Source of the DNA: Candidatus Melainabacteria bacterium
GTDB lineage: Bacteria > Cyanobacteriota > Vampirovibrionia > Vampirovibrionales > JAJTHC01
Direction of reading: 5' to 3'
Assembly (NCBI GenBank): GCA_033763415.1
Contig: JANRKP010000007.1
Coordinates: 9,046-73,045 of the forward strand
DNA length: 64,000 nucleotides
The notes below the pieces were generated by a model. That model saw only the letters and a program-made list of their open reading frames with translations. It ran no database searches and was not told the DNA's origin. Made by a program: the position numbers and the translations under genes. Shown here piece by piece: positions 24,921 to 32,588 of this stretch. Every line of letters starts with the position of its first letter. The stretch's first letter is position 1.

Positions 24921-26603
24921 TTACACAGCCCAGCGGGCCAATAGGCGGCCCACCAGCTCGCGCAGTTCCGAGGGAAGATTCAGTTGCTCTTTGACCCGCA
25001 GCAACTCCTCTTCCACACAACGGCGCCCATACTGCTGCAAAAAGCCGGGCGTTTCCACCAGTTTCTGGTTGTCCACCTCCTGACGCAACTGCACGGCCGC
25101 CGAAGCGGCTAGCTGGCTGAAACTGTGAATTTCCTGACAGTGCAGCAAATAGGCGGCTTCCGTCAAACGAGGAATCAGCAAGGCCTTCCATCCACTATTT
25201 ACCAAAGCCCGGGTTACCTGATGGGACAATGTGTCCAACAGGTCAAAAAATACCGCGTCGGATTCCGGCGGATGCGCCACGGCAGCCTCTAGCATAGCGC
25301 TTACCTGGCCCAGCAGTTCCGTCACTTCCGGGTGATCGCCGGGCTCTAAAAACCAGGTTTCAAAATCGGGGTGCTGGTATAAATTGGCGCCCAACACCAT
25401 ACCCGCCTCGGTGGCCCACGGCTGCACGGTTTCCATTAAATCCATCGGTTCTAGCGAAACATCTTCCAGCAAGACCTTCCAACAGCTATATTCATACGGA
25501 ATGCGGCTGCCGTTGTTGCGACTCATTTTTTCAGCCCACTGAATTTTGTTACGGCAATAGCTGACCGGCACCCGAATTTTCGTGTTGCCCTCGTGGAACT
25601 TCTGCAAAATGCGCTCAAAGTCTTCCTGGGCCAACTGATAAAAACCAAAGCAGTCAATAATGCCGTGCAGGTCGTTTAGCGCCAGGCTCATCATCGTAAT
25701 GTCGCCATTACTCCACTGACGACTGACCACCATGCCCTGGTTTCCCACCCCATCGGGAAGCGTGGCATAACAGTCAAACAAAACCGTTTGCTGCACCAGT
25801 GGGTGGCGAACACTCTGCTCCTGGAACGCCTCCACGGCTTCTTCCCTTAAGGCGCCAGACAGGCGAATTTCACTCAGGGCCCGTTGAATGGCACGGATCA
25901 AATCCGGAGAGGCGGCCACGTAACTGCCCTGCAAAGCCGCCAACCAGTCCGCCAAAAACATACCGGCCGGGGTCAGGCCACTTTTGCCCAAACTGCGTAT
26001 CAAGCGCTGTCGCACCTCGGTTGGAGGCTCCGCCTGAATGAGCGGAATGTAGATATTCATCAGGTAATCGGGCCGGTAATCGTTCTGCAAGGACTCGATG
26101 AGATGAATTTGCTCTGGTTCGGGCAAGGAGCAAATAAAGTCGATAAAATCAATCAGCGCTTCCGGGTTTTGCGAAGACACCTCCAACATGCGTTCGGTTT
26201 CGCGGTTAATCAGCCCCAAGGGATCGTCGAGATACTCCAGGTACAGATCCGGGTCGGTTTCATCGCCCAAGTGGCGCAAAATCAGGTTGGCCGCATCCTT
26301 TACCTCATCGGTGGTGTTGGGGTTGCGGATCAGTTCCCAAAGCGGGGTTTGAAGATGCGCAATGGTGCCCAGTTCCATTAAAATTTCGGCCACGGCCTGA
26401 ATATCCGACGGTTTTTTAGCGCGCTGGAGTTCTTTAACTAAAATGAGCAGCACGGCTTCCCGATCGGCGATTTCTCGCAAACGACGAAACTGTTTGGCCC
26501 GGTCGTGACGAGACGGTGTTTCCACCGAAGTCAGCACGCCCATCACTGCGAGCACTTCGCTACGAATATAAAGTTTGGAAGAAATCTGTGGAACGTCTGT
26601 CAT
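24921..26603 (-). CDS. Conserved-looking hypothetical protein of unknown function (560 aa, soluble, predominantly alpha-helical composition).
   Basis: Long uninterrupted ORF co-directional with the graspetide precursor upstream and ruvX downstream. No motif I can assign. Confidence 0.7.
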   Translation of the reverse strand: MTDVPQISSKLYIRSEVLAVMGVLTSVETPSRHDRAKQFRRLREIADREAVLLILVKELQRAKKPSDIQAVAEILMELGTIAHLQTPLWELIRNPNTTDEVKDAANLILRHLGDETDPDLYLEYLDDPLGLINRETERMLEVSSQNPEALIDFIDFICSLPEPEQIHLIESLQNDYRPDYLMNIYIPLIQAEPPTEVRQRLIRSLGKSGLTPAGMFLADWLAALQGSYVAASPDLIRAIQRALSEIRLSGALREEAVEAFQEQSVRHPLVQQTVLFDCYATLPDGVGNQGMVVSRQWSNGDITMMSLALNDLHGIIDCFGFYQLAQEDFERILQKFHEGNTKIRVPVSYCRNKIQWAEKMSRNNGSRIPYEYSCWKVLLEDVSLEPMDLMETVQPWATEAGMVLGANLYQHPDFETWFLEPGDHPEVTELLGQVSAMLEAAVAHPPESDAVFFDLLDTLSHQVTRALVNSGWKALLIPRLTEAAYLLHCQEIHSFSQLAASAAVQLRQEVDNQKLVETPGFLQQYGRRCVEEELLRVKEQLNLPSELRELVGRLLARWAV

Positions 26604-26763
26604 CGTCAGCTAATACTTCAATCCGGCTTGTATAAACTACCCTCTGCCACAGCGCTTTCACTCCGCACAGCGGCCATAAAGCCTTTGGCTTGGTTTATCA
26701 CACAAGCCCTAGCATACCGTGGCCAAGGCCGATTGAACAGCACGAGCCCACCTAACGCCGCAA

Positions 26764-26780
26764 GCCTTATTGACATTGAA
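26764..26780. promoter_or_regulatory. 17-bp palindrome TTGACATTgAATGTCAA upstream of the 560-aa hypothetical gene.
   Basis: Read directly. It contains a TTGACA -35-like hexamer on each strand. A direct repeat AAAAATCAGGCCCT x2 lies nearby at ~26849-26880. Confidence 0.3.
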
Positions 26781-26937
26781 TGTCAACACGGCTTGGCACT
26801 TCCTTTAACCCAGGCATCCGGCTATGGCGTTTACACGCGTTCCGGCACAAAAATCAGGCCCTCACGAAAAATCAGGCCCTTGGATCATTCGCAGAACCAA
26901 GAGCCTAATTCATTATGATCCGTAGTCTGTCAAAAAA

Positions 26938-28059
26938 TTACTGAATATCGCGGTTCAGCCTAGGACGTTGCCAAGCCTGAAGCGAGCTGCCTTCGGGTGG
27001 AACATCCATCAGAATAGCGGGCGGTTGCGCGTCTTCTTCCAACGCTTCTACCGGCAGCCACTCTTGGGAAGAACCGGGCTGAATGCTATGGCCAAAGTCC
27101 TCTTCCATTAACTCAGGGCCCCATTCCTGCACATCGGCAGGCGGCATATGGGGTGCGTCCTCTTCTATCAGGCCCGGAAAACAGTCAATAAAGTCCTGGC
27201 GGCCCATCGGAATCAGGGTTTCGTCTACCTCTAAACCGGGTGGAATATAGCCAGGGGAAGGCTCGGGTTCGATCGGCAGTTCCTCCATCCAGCGACCGTT
27301 GCCGGGCACGATAATGATGTCATCGCCAGGCGCTTCGCCCACACCCCCGGTTTCAGCATCGGATGGGAATGCCAACGTTTGTTCCACAATACTGGGGTTT
27401 GACGGCTCCCACGGCATCGGCCCTTCAATTCCACCAGGCTCCATAGAGCCCCCATCTTCGCTGTCAGATGGGTACTTCATCGTTTCTATGCCACTGTCGG
27501 GCAAGGGAAAAATACCACCATCGCCAGGCGCTTCACTTGCGCCCCCATCTTCACTATCGGACGGATACTTCAGGGTTTCTATGCCACTGTCGGGCAAGGG
27601 AAAAATACCGCCATCGCCAGGCAGCTCACCCACACCACCCTCTTCGCTGTCAGATGGGTACTTCATCGTTTCTACGCCACTGTCGGGCAAGGGAAAAATA
27701 CCGCCATCGCCAGGCAGCTCGCCCACACCACCCTCTTCGCTATCCGAAGGTGCCTTCATAGTTTGGTAGCCACCGCCCAAATCGCCGGGTTGGGTAGCCC
27801 AGGGCGCTTCGCTAGAACCACCCTCTTCACTGTCAGAGGGGTATTTCATCGTCTGAATCACCGTATCTGGAGATAAGGGCGAATCCCAGGACGTGCCACC
27901 CACGCCACCTTCTTCACTATCCGATGGCGCTTTTTCGGTCTCACCACGAATGCCATCCATCCATTGACGCCCCTCTGGGTTGGCTTGGGCCAAGCGCGGC
28001 AACGGTTGCGGGGGGGTTTGGCCGCTAGTCGCAAAATTGAGGAAATAACGATCTGTCAT
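26938..28059 (-). CDS. Multi-core graspetide (microviridin-like) precursor peptide: leader, 7 tandem core-like units, and an acidic C-terminal tail.
   Basis: The translation contains TEKAPSDSEEGG, TMKYPSDSEEGG, TMKAPSDSEEGG, TMKYPSDSEEGG, TLKYPSDSEDGG, TMKYPSDSEDGG and TLAFPSDAETGG, spaced ~31 aa apart. T-x-K-Y-P-S-D-x-E-E is the microviridin core signature. The N-terminal DRYFLNF resembles the PFFARFL leader motif. Adjacent to three ATP-grasp genes. Confidence 0.75.
   Translation of the reverse strand: MTDRYFLNFATSGQTPPQPLPRLAQANPEGRQWMDGIRGETEKAPSDSEEGGVGGTSWDSPLSPDTVIQTMKYPSDSEEGGSSEAPWATQPGDLGGGYQTMKAPSDSEEGGVGELPGDGGIFPLPDSGVETMKYPSDSEEGGVGELPGDGGIFPLPDSGIETLKYPSDSEDGGASEAPGDGGIFPLPDSGIETMKYPSDSEDGGSMEPGGIEGPMPWEPSNPSIVEQTLAFPSDAETGGVGEAPGDDIIIVPGNGRWMEELPIEPEPSPGYIPPGLEVDETLIPMGRQDFIDCFPGLIEEDAPHMPPADVQEWGPELMEEDFGHSIQPGSSQEWLPVEALEEDAQPPAILMDVPPEGSSLQAWQRPRLNRDIQ
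27448..27726. repeat. Three near-identical tandem ~93-bp coding repeats inside the precursor gene (the core plus linker units).
   Basis: Protein units VGELPGDGGIFPLPDSG(V/I)ET(M/L)KYPSDSE(E/D)GG repeat three times. The DNA is near-identical. The plus-strand shadow ORFs also show the repeats (PLSGKGKIPPSPG...). Confidence 0.8.
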
Positions 28060-28320
28060 AGGAAAAACGAAACCTCTCTGCTCTCTAATCTTTTATGTTG
28101 GCTTGGCAAAAAACCGAACACATCGACGTTTCAGTCTGTCACCCAAGCAACGGGGTAACATCTGTTACTGAAAACTGCTTCATGCACGCCAGCACAGCTC
28201 TTTAACTCTCTATTTACAGGTTTTAGTTCTCTCTCTCTTGATAACCCTTGGATGCAGCCCGAAGAGATGCAACCCAAAGCATATTTGACACCTGACGGGG
28301 ATTTTTTTAAGCGGAAACGA

Positions 28321-28340
28321 AACCTGCAACAATGCAGGTT
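28321..28340. promoter_or_regulatory. Perfect 8-bp inverted repeat (AACCTGCA-ACAA-TGCAGGTT) in the divergent intergenic region between the graspetide precursor and the ATP-grasp operon.
   Basis: Read directly. Flanked by GAAACGAAAC-type direct repeats at ~28067, ~28315 and ~28352. Confidence 0.3.
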
Positions 28341-28702
28341 GAATGCATAAAGTAGAAACGAACCGCTTTTGTGCTAGACACACCCACCTTTAGCGCTTGG
28401 GCAAAGTATTTAGCCTTGTGGAGCGGCGCGCTCAGTGGTTGCATTCTGCCCTACATCGTTGCATGGTGCTTAGGGCCTGTCGCTGGGCTTGCTGACAGCT
28501 TGCCCTACCCCCCCGATAAAGGACACCACTTTCATTTTGGTAGAGGGTTTGTCTTGCAGAAATTTTTTGGAAAGATGGCCTCGTTTCCGCTGGACAGGGG
28601 AACCCAAACACCCGAGCGCCTGTTAAAATCGAGCCAATGTAGGCACTGTACCTGCGGTATCCTACTCCGCCGGTATTACAAACGGGTTTTACAATAGCCA
28701 CT

Positions 28703-29650
28703 ATGTTTTTAATCATTGGCGGCAGCAACAGCCTAACCAACCGACTCTACGCCAAGCTGCGCGCACGCGGGCACCGAAGCTGCTTTTGGCCCTCGGACAG
28801 TTTTCCCCTGGAATCCTGGGTCGCGCTGGAAACCGGCCCCCCCCCCAAAGGACGGTTCTGGCTACCTGGTATTGGGCAACAAAGCCTCTCTCTGCAAGAA
28901 ATTGAGGGTGTTTATTGGTGGTTTTATGAAGGTCCGGCATTACTGAAAGCCCCACCTGTCGAAGGAGAAACCCCGGAGCAGGCCGCTCGACGCCAGCGCC
29001 AGGAGTTGGATGCCTGCCTGCTGACAGCCTATCACTTGATGGATTGCCCCTGGATTAACCCGCCAGGCAGCGTCCTAAACCACCGTTACAAGGTAGAGCA
29101 GCTCACCGAGGCGACCGCGTTGGGGTTCACCATTCCAGATAGCCTGATGAGCAACGATCCTCAAGCAATTGCAGCCTTTTACCAGGATTGCCAGGGCGAA
29201 GTGGTTGTAAAAAGTGTGGCCACCACTGGGGTGCCCAGCCGGTTAACCCAAGCACAACTAAGCCAATGGCAGAAAAATGGCGAAAGTAAGCCTGCCACCC
29301 GGCTGTTTCAGCGGTTTATACCCGGCACCGATGTGCGGGTACACGTGGTGGGCCAGCGCCTGTTTGCGTCTGAGGTATTAAGCGATCATTGGGTGTCCAA
29401 GGTCGATCTCAAAGATCCGCAACCTGTTTCCATTCCCGATGCGCTGGCGCAGCAATGCCTTACATTGTGCGAAAAACTCAATCTGGTACTGGCCGGGATT
29501 GACTTTAGGAAAACATCGGACGGGGAATACGTTTTTTTGGAAGCCAACCCCAGCCCACAGTACCCCGCCTACGAAGACCGAAACCACTACCCGATTAGTG
29601 ACGCCATTGTAGAGGCCTTGATCCGTGGCGTGGGGGCAAAACACCGATGA
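28703..29650 (+). CDS. ATP-grasp ligase, RiPP-modifying (MdnB/MdnC-like graspetide maturase), paralog 1.
   Basis: Pre-ATP-grasp N-terminus MFLIIGGSN... ATP-grasp motifs: VVKSVATTG (Lys), IDFRKTSDGEYVFLEANPSPQY (E-x-N Mg site). ~315 aa. Stop overlaps the next start (ATGA). Confidence 0.85.
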   Translation: MFLIIGGSNSLTNRLYAKLRARGHRSCFWPSDSFPLESWVALETGPPPKGRFWLPGIGQQSLSLQEIEGVYWWFYEGPALLKAPPVEGETPEQAARRQRQELDACLLTAYHLMDCPWINPPGSVLNHRYKVEQLTEATALGFTIPDSLMSNDPQAIAAFYQDCQGEVVVKSVATTGVPSRLTQAQLSQWQKNGESKPATRLFQRFIPGTDVRVHVVGQRLFASEVLSDHWVSKVDLKDPQPVSIPDALAQQCLTLCEKLNLVLAGIDFRKTSDGEYVFLEANPSPQYPAYEDRNHYPISDAIVEALIRGVGAKHR

Positions 29651-30591
29651 TTTTGATTATAGGCCACCGAGACGAACACACCCAGCGCGTGGAAGCCCAC
29701 CTGGAAACCCTGGGCCAGCGCGTCATCTACTGGAACACACAAAGTTTTCCGGCGGAAGCCAGCCTTAGCCTGCACCTGGGAGATTTTTCCCAATCCTGTT
29801 TGGAACTGCACCAGGAGCGGTTGTTTCTTTCAGATATTGAGGGCGTTTACTGGTACCACTACCACGGCGTGCGCCCAGGCAGCCGAACAACAGACCCGGA
29901 GGCAGACGTTTCTCTGCTCAATCTGTTTCGCAGTTGGCAAACAAACTGGGTCAACCCGCCCGCATCCGTTATGCGCCACAGACTGAAAATCTATCAGCTA
30001 CAACAGGTCGCACAGCTTGGTATTCGGACTCCACACACGCTGGTGAGTAACGATATTGGCAGCCTGCAATCCTTTTGCGAACAAATGGGCGGCACCATTA
30101 TTTCTAAAAACTACACGGGCATTGGCATTCCGCAAAAACTGACCAGCGCCTCACTGGCCAGTAACCTTCAGGCCGATTCATCTCAGCGCAGCATGATGCC
30201 TGCCATTTTTCAGGAATACATCCAAGGGCTGGATATCCGCATCCACGCGATAGGAGACGCCCTGTTCGCCACGGAACTGCACACGCAGGACTGGACGTTT
30301 GTGCTGGATCGCCAGGTGGAACTGCGCGCCACCAGCGTGCCAGACGATTTGGCCGAACAGTGCCAGCGGATTATACAACGGTTGGGACTGGTTTTTTCCG
30401 GGTTAGATTTTAGACGAACCCAAACAGGAGAGTACGTTTTTATTGAAGCCAACCCCAGCCCGCAATTTGGCGCCTACGAAGCGGCCTGCCACTACCCCAT
30501 TAGCGAACACGTGGCCAAACGGCTCTGTGGCAAGCACCCCAACTACCCAACCGGCCCATCCCGGCCCGGAACGGAGGGACACACGGCATGA
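29647..30591 (+). CDS. ATP-grasp ligase, RiPP-modifying (MdnB/MdnC-like), paralog 2.
   Basis: Paralogous to 28703..29650 (WVNPPASVMRHRLKIYQL vs WINPPGSVLNHRYKVEQL; LDFRRTQTGEYVFIEANPSPQF). ATGA-type overlap with both neighbours. Confidence 0.85.
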   Translation: MILIIGHRDEHTQRVEAHLETLGQRVIYWNTQSFPAEASLSLHLGDFSQSCLELHQERLFLSDIEGVYWYHYHGVRPGSRTTDPEADVSLLNLFRSWQTNWVNPPASVMRHRLKIYQLQQVAQLGIRTPHTLVSNDIGSLQSFCEQMGGTIISKNYTGIGIPQKLTSASLASNLQADSSQRSMMPAIFQEYIQGLDIRIHAIGDALFATELHTQDWTFVLDRQVELRATSVPDDLAEQCQRIIQRLGLVFSGLDFRRTQTGEYVFIEANPSPQFGAYEAACHYPISEHVAKRLCGKHPNYPTGPSRPGTEGHTA

Positions 30592-31511
30592 CCATTCTCA
30601 TTGTGGGCAAAGAAGAAGATCTCACCTCCATTGTGATCAAGGAAAAAGTCGCCTATCGCGGCATTCCCGCCTATTACCTGGATACCCGGCAGTTTCCGTA
30701 CAAAACCCGACTGAGCTTCAACATCGAATCGCCCACGGAAGGCGTTTTTCAGGAGGCGCCCCATCAGCCCGTGGTTCCTCTGGGCGACATTCGCGGCGTG
30801 TTTCGTCGCTGGTCCGACGGCGTGGTGGTTCCAGCAGACGAGACCGACCCCTTGCGGCGACGCCTGGTGCAACGAAACCTGGAATCGGCCATCAACACGT
30901 TTTTCAACCTGCTGGATTGCCAATGGGTCAATACCGCCGAGGCCACGGACCGACACCGGCAAAAAGGCGTGCTGCTGAAAGAACTGAAACAGGCTGGCAT
31001 CCGTGTTCCAGAAACCCTGATTTCCAACCACCCTGAGGAGGTCAAAGCGTTTTACGAACAACTCAACGGCCAGGCCATTTTCAAACCCGTATTCAGTTGG
31101 GCCAGCACCGAGGCGCTGATGCCTGAACACCTGACAGACGAATCCCTGGCGCGGCTGAGCAATATGCCCATTACCGTTCAGGAGCTGATTAACGGAACAG
31201 ACTTACGCATTTACGTGGTGGGCCAAGAGGTGTTCGCCATGGAAATTCGCAGCGAAACGCTGGATTTTAGAGACGATCCGGGCGCCACGCGAGTTGCAAT
31301 AAAGCTTCCAATGGATATTGAAGCCCGCTGCATCGAGATTACCCGTCGGCTGGGCCTGGTGTTTTGCGGTATCGATATGCGCAGAACACCAGACGGCGAG
31401 TACGTGTTTTTCGAAGGCAATCCCACACCCGTTTTTCTGATGGATGAAGACATGACCGGCTACCCCATCGGGGATCGCATCGTGGATTTGCTCACCCAAG
31501 GCGAGCGTTAA
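30588..31511 (+). CDS. ATP-grasp ligase, RiPP-modifying, paralog 3 (more divergent).
   Basis: Same architecture (MTILIVGKEED... IFKPVFSWAST ... IDMRRTPDGEYVFFEGNPTPVF) but lower similarity to paralogs 1 and 2. Confidence 0.85.
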   Translation: MTILIVGKEEDLTSIVIKEKVAYRGIPAYYLDTRQFPYKTRLSFNIESPTEGVFQEAPHQPVVPLGDIRGVFRRWSDGVVVPADETDPLRRRLVQRNLESAINTFFNLLDCQWVNTAEATDRHRQKGVLLKELKQAGIRVPETLISNHPEEVKAFYEQLNGQAIFKPVFSWASTEALMPEHLTDESLARLSNMPITVQELINGTDLRIYVVGQEVFAMEIRSETLDFRDDPGATRVAIKLPMDIEARCIEITRRLGLVFCGIDMRRTPDGEYVFFEGNPTPVFLMDEDMTGYPIGDRIVDLLTQGER

Positions 31512-31592
31512 AAAACAGGGGAAGCCTCCAACAAAGCCAAACCGGCCATCTTGAGCAGACAGCCGGTCCAGCAAAGAAAAATAAGGCAGAGG

Positions 31593-32588
31593 TTACACCA
31601 CAAACGAGGCCAGGGCAGAGGTTAAGTCTGTCGTGGGTTTCATTTGATCGTCGTGGTATGGAATTTCTACCGGTGAGTGCTCCCGCAACGGGGGCAGGTT
31701 TTGCTTCAGCAACTCATCGTACGTTGGCAAGCCCACCTGGAAGTAGACGCCCAAGGGCACCCGCTCTTCCACTTCGTAGGCTTTTTGCAACGCCTGCTGA
31801 CGTTTCTGGCTGACTTCCGCCGGGTCGGTGGGGTTTTCCACCACGCCGTTATAGCCGGTGTCTTCCAGGTAGTAGGTTCTTGGGTATTCCACGCCTTCAA
31901 AGGAAACCACACCGGAATAGTAGTCCTTGGTATGGAGGTCGTTATAGGTGGGGCAAGGCTGGAACACATCCACAAGCGCCATACCGCGGTGCTCGATGGC
32001 TTTCATCAGGGTTTCTTTCAGATGTTTGCCATCAAACGCGTAGCTACGGGCAATAAACGTGTAACCACAGGATACCGCAACGGCCAACGGGTTGATTGCC
32101 TGGCTAATGTTAGGCAGCGGCAGCGATTTTGGCTGAGCCCCCAGCGCCAACGTCGGGGCAGCCTGCCCCTTGGTTAGGCCGTACACCTCATTGTTGAACA
32201 CAATGTAGGTCATATCCACGTTGCGGCGGCCCGCATGCAGAAAGTGACCCGCACCGATGCCGTAACCATCACCATCGCCACCGGCGGCAACCACCACCAG
32301 GTTTGGGTTGGTTAGTTTGGCACCCAACGCGTAGGGCAGCACACGGCCATGGAGCGTATGAATGCCATACGTGTTCACCGCTTGCGACGCCTTACCCGAG
32401 CAACCGACCCCGGTGAAAAAGGCCACTTCCCAGGGAGGCAAACCCAATTCGGCAATGGCTTGCTGAAGGGCGCCATTGATACCAAAGTCGCCGCAACCAG
32501 GACACCATTCCGGGCTGTAGTCGCCCTTTAACTGAGAAAACTTGTAGCTGCCCTTGTACCGGGCTTTCTCTTGCAGATTAGTGACCAC
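31593..32588 (-). CDS. korB: 2-oxoacid:ferredoxin oxidoreductase beta subunit (TPP-binding; KorB/OorB-like).
   Basis: N-terminal ...YSPEWCPGCGDFGI... and the TPP-binding GDGDG motif (VVVAAGGDGDGYGIGAGH). Overlaps the upstream alpha-subunit gene by 11 nt. Confidence 0.85.
   Translation of the reverse strand: MVTNLQEKARYKGSYKFSQLKGDYSPEWCPGCGDFGINGALQQAIAELGLPPWEVAFFTGVGCSGKASQAVNTYGIHTLHGRVLPYALGAKLTNPNLVVVAAGGDGDGYGIGAGHFLHAGRRNVDMTYIVFNNEVYGLTKGQAAPTLALGAQPKSLPLPNISQAINPLAVAVSCGYTFIARSYAFDGKHLKETLMKAIEHRGMALVDVFQPCPTYNDLHTKDYYSGVVSFEGVEYPRTYYLEDTGYNGVVENPTDPAEVSQKRQQALQKAYEVEERVPLGVYFQVGLPTYDELLKQNLPPLREHSPVEIPYHDDQMKPTTDLTSALASFVV

Follow-up and report, generated by a model that had tools for sequence, protein, structure and literature searches.

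Microviridins are the founding members of the graspetides, and in the textbook model they are made by one ester-forming and one amide-forming ATP-grasp ligase. Marinostatin-type inhibitors, which the microviridin model NF033738 also covers, are bicyclic, contain esters only, and lack the lactam Lys. In the plesiocin system, PsnB works alone on the TTxxxxEE hairpin cores of a multi-core precursor, PsnA2. The myxomiditide (myx) cluster has four ATP-grasp ligases, MyxF, MyxD1, MyxD2, and MyxC (PMC12848669). Here we describe a locus in a 64,000-nucleotide stretch of contig JANRKP010000007.1 (the window), from a metagenome-assembled genome (MAG) labeled Candidatus Melainabacteria (locus tags SFZ03_02710 to _02720), in which one precursor gene stands divergent from three ATP-grasp ligase genes, G1, G2, and G3. 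G1, G2, and G3 are graspetide ATP-grasp macrocyclases that belong to neither the MdnB nor the MdnC family. In the reading that we favor, to which we give about an even chance, these ligases were recruited independently of MdnB and MdnC, G3 is a leader-guided first cyclase, and G1 and G2 act as a codependent second-stage pair.

Judged by its sequence, the window precursor is a class II-like member of the microviridin family. It matched PF12559 Inhibitor_I10 (E = 4.4e-17; 62.5 bits, cutoff of 21) and, in three stretches, NF033738 (microviridin/marinostatin ribosomally synthesized and posttranslationally modified peptide [RiPP]; E = 2e-24; 86.1 bits, cutoff of 26). The systems used for comparison were MdnA/B/C of Microcystis, MvdE/C/D of Planktothrix, and the class II, multi-core AMdnA/B/C of Anabaena PCC 7120. 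Like them, the window has one N-terminal leader, tandem cores ending in GG, and more than one ATP-grasp ligase, and its genes predict the same kind of product, a tricyclic cage of two esters and one amide that would inhibit serine proteases. The cores are, in order, TEKAPSDSEE, TMKYPSDSEE, TMKAPSDSEE, TMKYPSDSEE, TLKYPSDSED, TMKYPSDSED, and TLAFPSDAET. All except the last fit the microviridin-like motif TxKxPSDx(D/E)(D/E); in core 7, Lys3 and the position-10 acid are both missing, a joint loss that supports the canonical Lys3-acid10 pairing. Core 7 thereby resembles marinostatin, as do the TxAYPSDDA cores of one-ligase Gastranaerophilales loci, which also lack the lactam Lys. Unlike in marinostatin, however, the Lys-less core is only one of seven in the window, and the other cores can form a lactam.

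The departures from the microviridin pathway are equally clear. The window has three ligases rather than two, none of them an ortholog of MdnB/MvdC or MdnC/MvdD, and seven cores rather than the up to five described for class II in review. It lacks GNAT, ABC transporter, and C39 peptidase genes within the cluster, and it comes from a Vampirovibrionia MAG, not from an oxygenic cyanobacterium. The leader carries RYFLNFA in place of PFFARFL, with the aromatic pattern kept; the Arg of PFFARFL, which contacts MdnC E191/D192 (microviridin review), is Asn here. Leader-motif relatives were found at other loci as NRYMLGFPAS (L001), PYFINYATS (L086 and L088), NRYFVNYAQS (L089), and MGLFVNFG (L017). Two QEWxP...(L/M/E)EED repeats lie in the acidic tail of the precursor, along with DETLIPMG, which may be a degenerate eighth core. 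Relatives have no such tail: their precursors end in a Q/L-rich amphipathic helix (QIIQLMTQFLQIIMQLLQ in L001, QTIYLLMQLLQQYNIK in L009 and L011) or stop directly after the last core (L003). Either tail type could be a follower-type docking element for ligases without a leader pocket.

The window resembles the myx cluster in joining a microviridin-type core to more than two ligases, and in the myx cluster paralogous ligases cooperate (PMC12848669). The extra myx ligases, however, serve an N-terminal (KxxE)n motif, and translation of the window precursor revealed no (KxxE)n repeats N-terminal to the cores, which by this motif places the window outside myx class 3. Myx precursors are also single-core, and the extra myx enzymes belong to the branches of MvdC (MyxC), MvdD (MyxD), and MyxF; G1 to G3 lie outside the MvdC and MvdD branches.

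All three window ligases matched the Pfam RimK-type ATP-grasp and MvdD pre-ATP-grasp models and the NCBIfam "ATP-grasp ribosomal peptide maturase" models, aligned over their full lengths to the solved structures of PsnB, MdnC, and MdnB (PDB), and lie beside a precursor with repeated Thr/Ser/Lys plus Asp/Glu core motifs. None belongs to the microviridin ligase families by equivalog score. Against the MvdC amide ligase model (TIGR04185; cutoff of 425 bits), G1, G2, and G3 scored 88.5, 113.8, and 124.5 bits, and against the MvdD ester ligase model (TIGR04184; cutoff of 475 bits), they scored 76.4, 94.0, and 112.2 bits. G3 was the top scorer of the three against every RiPP-ligase model, and its best solved-structure match was PsnB (98.6 bits). 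For G1 and G2, MdnB or AMdnB came marginally first (68 to 71 bits), with PsnB within 2 to 4 bits. Reading G1 and G2 as amide ligases from the slight lead of MdnB over PsnB and MdnC was rejected, as gaps of 2 to 7 bits were judged insignificant. Outside its own clade, G1 was most similar to Vampirovibrionia G3-type ligases (150 to 180 bits, compared to 68 bits for MdnB). The first-pass annotation, made from the letters of the DNA, had described paralogs 1 and 2 as clearly closer to each other than to the third. The paralogy itself is well beyond what chance would give, and the direction holds in BLASTP comparisons (G1-G2, 37% identity, 211 bits, E = 3e-71; G1-G3, 32%, 151 bits, E = 2e-48; G2-G3, 33%, 154 bits, E = 2e-49), but the margin is modest, and in one related genome raw identity did not separate the pairs.

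A neighbor-joining tree of 229 ligases (300 columns, 100 bootstraps), with sequences of MdnC, MdnB, AMdnB, PsnB, and 9BOU taken from PDB alignments, placed G1 (n = 6), G2 (n = 4), and G3 (n = 9) in separate orthogroups, each with a bootstrap value of 100. The expectation that the three ligases had diverged functionally, rather than forming one orthogroup, was thus borne out. The G3 orthogroup is nested in a clade of Vampirovibrionia ligases. G1 and G2 are sisters (bootstrap value of 73) and form a clade (bootstrap value of 94) with single ligases that we call G12 (P0006 to P0009 and P0012), the "second ligase" of two-ligase Vampirovibrio loci; P0013 was ruled out as a G12-type ligase, being canonical (R72, DFR) and grouping with L018. 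MdnB (5IG8), AMdnB (7M4S), and P0080 grouped at 100 and were joined by MdnC (5IG9) at 98, within a 23-sequence clade (bootstrap value of 96) that contains none of the window ligases. The first-pass annotation had suggested that a phylogeny with MdnB and MdnC references would assign ester and amide roles. Because G1 to G3 all fall outside the MdnB-MdnC clade (96 to 98) and score far below the MvdC and MvdD cutoffs, these roles are unreadable by orthology, and the tree permits no such assignment.

The active sites were compared in PsnB numbering at residues shown to be important in that enzyme. In PsnB, K172 and T180 move onto the nucleotide, R213 recognizes the ring-forming carboxylate, and the D233-F-R235 loop is essential, its alanine mutants being inactive and R235 contacting the nucleotide; R72 and R213 are described as "highly conserved" across 12 graspetide groups, and the D(F/W)R loop is also reported to be highly conserved across them (PsnB study). 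K133, K172, R213, D269, E282, and N284 are kept in G3, in the G1 and G2 families, and in the G12 single ligases. The hallmarks of graspetide ligases, namely, the ATP lysines, the Mg Asp, E-x-N, and Arg213, are therefore present in G1 to G3, and Arg213 is present in all orthologs as well. Corresponding residues in the proteins' own numbering are K130, K170, R212, D267, and E280-A-N282 in G1; K114, K154, R198, D254, and E267-A-N269 in G2; and K126, K166, R207, D263, and E276-G-N278 in G3.

Two further hallmarks, Arg72 and the D(F/W)R loop, were found in G3 and were missing from G1, G2, and the G12 singles. At position 72, G3 has Arg, the G1 family has Trp, the G2 family has Tyr, and the G12 singles have Tyr (or Glu in some, e.g., P0006); at position 180, the respective residues are Thr, Pro, Pro, and Leu or Ile. 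The Glu of the Q-E motif (position 205) is present in G3, the G2 family, and the G12 singles and is variable in the G1 family (R/Q/P/H/A). At positions 233 to 235, G3 reads DFR, the G1 family an invariant W-VSK, the G2 family an invariant W-TFV, and the G12 singles xYK. In the window proteins, G3 carries R74, T174, QEL, and DFR (226 to 228) and also keeps R101 (PsnB numbering); G1 carries W72, QRF, and WVSK (230 to 233); and G2 carries QEY and WTFV (216 to 219), with no basic residue in the loop and a shortened helix alpha3. Lacking Arg72 and D(F/W)R, G1 and G2 are atypical graspetide synthetases; such loop remodeling is undescribed in the myx paper (PMC12848669). The QRF of G1 was considered as a sign of lost ATP binding and rejected, since MdnB and AMdnB, both active amide ligases, likewise lack the QE Glu. 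In several close ATP-grasp relatives among the representative proteins (P0154, P0169 to P0173, and P0179), DFR and E-x-N are kept and Arg213 is replaced by Leu, Met, Ala, or Trp; these are candidate noncatalytic partner paralogs in other graspetide systems.

Conservation among orthologs followed the same division. Four genomes carry a complete trio (the window, Vampirovibrionales Bin_14 [L001], the JGI contigs L003 to L005, and L170), and among them ortholog identity was 56 to 67% for G3, 45 to 51% for G1, and 38 to 48% for G2. Within the helix corresponding to the PsnB leader pocket (184 to 203), it was 56 to 58% for G3, 34% for G12, 20 to 22% for G2, and 14 to 15% for G1. The first-pass annotation had singled out the third ligase as the divergent one, and the relation proved to be inverted: G3 is the most conserved, has the top model scores, and alone retains R72, T180, E205, and DFR as a set. 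Both lysines, R213, the Asp, and E-x-N are invariant among G1 and G2 orthologs only 38 to 51% identical, and every member of the G1 family has WVSK and every member of the G2 family WTFV, so the loops of G1 and G2 look remodeled rather than decayed; the pattern marks both as selected enzymes rather than decaying genes. The earlier inference from E-x-N that all three ligases are probably active was sound as to the motif, which all three have, and too simple as to the rest, since G1 and G2 lack D(F/W)R and R72 and G1 lacks the QE Glu. A noncatalytic scaffold, also suggested then, is unlikely for any of the three, given that the ATP, Mg, and carboxylate ligands survive at 38 to 67% ortholog identity.

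G3 shares R72, R101, K172, T180, R213, and DFR with PsnB, a group 2 ligase. In a survey that scanned one genome per species and then searched all open reading frames (ORFs) with hidden Markov models (HMMs), the closest G3 relatives (45 to 68% identity) were all from Vampirovibrionia, and remoter ones (35 to 41%) were from Cyanobacteria and Planctomycetota. With few exceptions, these loci show just one ligase in the surrounding ±7 kb, beside a multi-core TTxA[LVI]GEEGG precursor (the plesiocin core type), a TTQAFPENGGG precursor, or a Lys-less TxAYPSDDA precursor, the last in Gastranaerophilales L012 to L014. Unlike PsnB, G3 has a substrate with microviridin-type PSD cores and is accompanied by two further ligases, and the window falls outside group 2. 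At four Vampirovibrionales loci (L022, L024, L026, and L027), single G3-clade ligases adjoin very long repeat precursors of the TTQAFPENGGG or TLA[FI]PENGGG type, with at least 11 repeats in L026 and more than 20 in L024. Their cores look like the plesiocin hairpin on the one hand and the window's Lys-less TLAFPSDAETGG core on the other, which hints that PENGGG-type cores bridge the hairpin and cage types in evolution.

In two-ligase loci, G12 comes first, then the precursor, then a G3-like ligase (L088, and L086 plus L011 of Vampirovibrio chlorellavorus; L089 and L010 are partial), and their cores read T[QKRL]K[FAY]PSDNE[S/T/C], with Lys3 present and position 10 nonacidic. In V. chlorellavorus Vc_AZ_2, the precursor is broken across the end of contig 31 (L086, 6911 to 7138) and the start of contig 9 (L011, 1 to 150), presumably by an assembly break in the repeats. 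Joined, the two parts read G12-like ligase, multi-core precursor, and G3-like ligase, and the predatory V. chlorellavorus therefore carries the two-ligase version. Three-ligase loci were found in the window, L001/L006, L003 to L005, L170, and HKST-UBA04 (L007 plus L172), and in those where a precursor is present every core reads TxKxPSDxE[D/E], with core 7 of the window as the sole exception. The Bin_14 MAG carries a single-ligase G3-clade locus (L016, 47% identity) besides its three-ligase PSD-type locus (L006), so several graspetide systems coexist in one genome. The G1/G2/G12 subfamily is rare: among 14,652 ATP-grasp relatives (E ≤ 1e-3) retrieved with its profile by a HMMER search of 1.84 billion representative proteins, its signature appeared in ~13 clusters among the best 150. 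A metagenome scan with the same profile gave 47 pattern matches, 0 of which were confirmed, and a metagenome scan with the G3 profile yielded only short contigs carrying distant relatives of G3, none of them another three-ligase locus.

Across these loci, the number of ligases tracks core chemistry: one ligase where cores lack Lys3, two where Lys3 is accompanied by two acids, and three where it is accompanied by three acids. This could mean that each ring has its own enzyme, with G3 making Thr1-Asp7, G1 and G2 dividing the Ser6-Glu9 ester and the Lys3-Asp/Glu10 lactam between them as independent ligases, and coupling serving dosage. The count of acids does equal that of ligases in two-ligase (D7, E9) and three-ligase (D7, E9, D/E10) loci, and the distinct invariant loops of G1 (WVSK) and G2 (WTFV) suggest different specificities. 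We nevertheless regard this arrangement as rather unlikely. PsnB-type relatives of G3, and MdnC, each install two esters; the Lys-less cores of one-ligase loci already carry two acids (D7, D8); and the absence of a conserved leader helix from G1 and G2 argues against independent substrate recruitment by either.

The same loci bear on the suggestion that an extra ligase is specialized for variant cores. The two variants named in the first-pass annotation, KAPSD and AFPSDAET, are both present in the window precursor. Orthologous trios, however, serve precursors without a Lys-less core (L001 and L003 to L005, where all cores have Lys3 and the acid at position 10), the alternation of A, Y, and F at position 4 (KAPSD with K[YF]PSD) occurs in two-ligase loci as well, and Lys-less PSD cores elsewhere need only one ligase (L012 to L014). 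The suggestion is contradicted by these comparisons, and we consider it hardly credible. We think it very improbable, too, that the G1-G2 pair consists of redundant isozymes, or that G1 and G2 modify a substrate from some other locus and sit next to the window precursor only by coincidence. Such a view could draw on MyxF and MyxD1, which act as isozymes, and on the trios of L170 and HKST-UBA04 (L007 and L172), where no precursor was found within ~10 kb of the ligases and ORFs of 349, 118, 130, and 176 amino acids (aa) were unrelated. Yet wherever context was available, a G3-type ligase or a PSD-type precursor adjoined every G1/G2/G12-type gene; a six-frame motif scan detected no second precursor in the window; and G1 and G2 form distinct orthogroups (bootstrap values of 100) with different invariant loops.

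Every complete three-ligase locus (four of four) has G2 directly behind G1, joined to it by the ATGA overlap, while the place of G3 varies: in L001 and L003 it is on the opposite strand, downstream of the precursor; in L170 and HKST-UBA04 it is divergent from G1; and only in the window is it joined to the G1-G2 operon. That the G1-G2 junction is kept while G3 moves supports codependence of G1 and G2, and a codependent pair acting after G3 is what would be expected of two enzymes that have their own loops, have lost the constrained leader helix, and are always cotranslated. In the favored scheme, G3 would bind the RYFLNFA leader and close the first omega-ester ring, Thr1-Asp7, and possibly a further one, Ser6-Glu9. 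G1 and G2, having putatively arisen by duplication of the G12 ligase of two-ligase loci, would both still be catalytic, each with its own remodeled active-site loop and neither with a conserved leader-binding helix. Produced together and dependent on each other, probably in a complex, G1 and G2 would act after G3 to finish the cage by forming the Lys3-Asp/Glu10 lactam and, possibly, the second ester (Ser6-Glu9). The outcome would be microviridin-like cages on seven tandem cores. There is precedent for such a pair in MyxD2, which has no leader-recognition residues, shows no activity by itself, depends on partners, and was isolated in a complex with MyxD1 (PMC12848669). What we observed is the anatomy of the genes, their orthogroups, residue patterns, and synteny, and the correlation of ligase number with core chemistry; from these we infer the bond made by each enzyme, the order of action, and a physical G1-G2 complex.

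The strict coupling of G1 and G2 could also reflect a heterodimer with a single productive site, in which the other subunit is an ATP-binding-impaired scaffold or activator, an arrangement that would resemble MyxD1/MyxD2 or the PsnB asymmetric dimer. PsnB is active as an asymmetric dimer in which one subunit has the core bound (PsnB study), the R235 of its DFR loop contacts the nucleotide, and what one member of the window pair has lost the other keeps: the QE Glu and the loop Phe are missing from G1 and present in G2, and a basic loop residue (Lys) is present in G1 and missing from G2. This arrangement is unlikely in our judgment. G1 and G2 keep both lysines, R213, the Asp, and E-x-N over deep divergence, whereas loss of these residues would be expected in a pure scaffold; retention of the core catalytic residues in all three ligases and their orthologs argues against a dead scaffold.

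Several points weigh against a G3-first scheme with a codependent G1-G2 pair. The assignment of bonds to G1, G2, and G3 is itself one that we infer. MdnB and AMdnB, active amide ligases, keep R72 and DWR, so remodeled loops are no general signature of amide formation. Two-ligase cores have Lys3 without an acid at position 10, and the role of G12, and hence of G1 and G2, may therefore not be the canonical lactam; a different cross-link installed by the extra ligase, as the first-pass annotation also suggested, is possible. The tree is distance based with few characterized references, and the node joining G1/G2/G12 to the G3 superclade has a bootstrap value of 49. Finally, the correlation between chemistry and ligase number rests on few, related lineages (~3, 4, and 3 loci).

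A broader interpretation, which we put forward only tentatively, is that Vampirovibrionia built microviridin-type cage chemistry separately from oxygenic cyanobacteria, out of plesiocin-type (group 2-like) ligase stock, and have preserved the series of one, two, and three ligases. G1 and G2 would then represent a new subfamily of leader-independent, D(F/W)R-less ligases that function solely when complexed with each other, and possibly with G3, with one dedicated site per ring.

The layout of the cluster is given in Table 1. The three ATP-grasp ORFs called in the first-pass annotation were confirmed at these positions, and the translational coupling that it proposed for G1/G2 and G2/G3 was upheld, the start codon overlapping the upstream stop at both ATGA junctions. 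Flanking genes are housekeeping genes only, with no protease, transporter, or acetyltransferase gene among them, so the cluster appears to consist of the precursor and three ligases alone.

Table 1. Features of the precursor-ligase cluster, in window positions
Feature	Position	Strand	Basis or remark
Precursor gene	26938..28059	-	ORF, 373 aa: leader, seven microviridin-like cores, acidic tail of ~130 aa
C-terminal extension of precursor	26941..27348	-	Translation; acidic, QEWxP...EED repeats
Seven-core array	27349..27939	-	Six-frame motif scan and translation
Leader recognition motif DRYFLNFATS	28024..28053	-	Counterpart of PFFARFL
Divergent intergenic region, precursor gene to G1	28060..28702		643 nt
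G1, ATP-grasp ligase, 315 aa	28703..29650	+	Intact ORF
ATGA overlap, G1 stop/G2 start	29647..29650	+	4 nt; kept in 4/4 complete three-ligase loci
G2, ATP-grasp ligase, 314 aa	29647..30591	+	Intact ORF
ATGA overlap, G2 stop/G3 start, GGAGGG ahead	30588..30591	+	4 nt; specific to window genome
G3, canonical graspetide ATP-grasp ligase, 307 aa	30588..31511	+	Intact ORF

The intergenic spacer of the window contrasts with the ~90 to 180 nt found in L003 and L001, and an ORF of 108 aa and doubtful reality lies inside it (28371 to 28697). A promoter and terminator scan of 26700 to 31800 showed no enrichment over shuffled sequences, and the sole promoter-like match (28688 to 28716) was not above shuffle expectation; the spacer yielded neither a convincing promoter nor an RNA element. 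Directly downstream of the precursor gene, on the same strand, is a 560-aa ORF without a Pfam match (24921 to 26603, minus strand), in the position that G3 occupies in relatives. A strong hairpin (31536 to 31572; a 16-bp stem followed by a T-rich tract on the minus strand) sits between the end of G3 and a convergent gene for a 2-oxoacid:ferredoxin oxidoreductase beta subunit (31593 to 32588). It probably terminates the latter gene and may act in both directions.

We found no description of a three-ligase cluster, or of any Vampirovibrionia graspetide, in the literature collection that was searched, and the statement is limited to that collection. Cooperation of several ligases in a microviridin-type cluster has already been published for myx (2026); the window locus and its relatives are a second, independent multi-ligase solution, with ligases outside the MdnB and MdnC lineages. 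The natural series of one-, two-, and three-ligase loci offers a test of how ring-forming specificities arise after duplication. G1 and G2 do without three elements regarded as essential and nearly universal among these enzymes: the leader-binding helix, Arg72, and the D(F/W)R loop. The pair may reveal the true function of these elements and may be a source of leader-independent cyclases for engineering. Members of the family are found in predatory and nonphotosynthetic relatives of cyanobacteria, including Vampirovibrio chlorellavorus, and a protease inhibitor with seven heads could be important there in predation or in interaction with a host.

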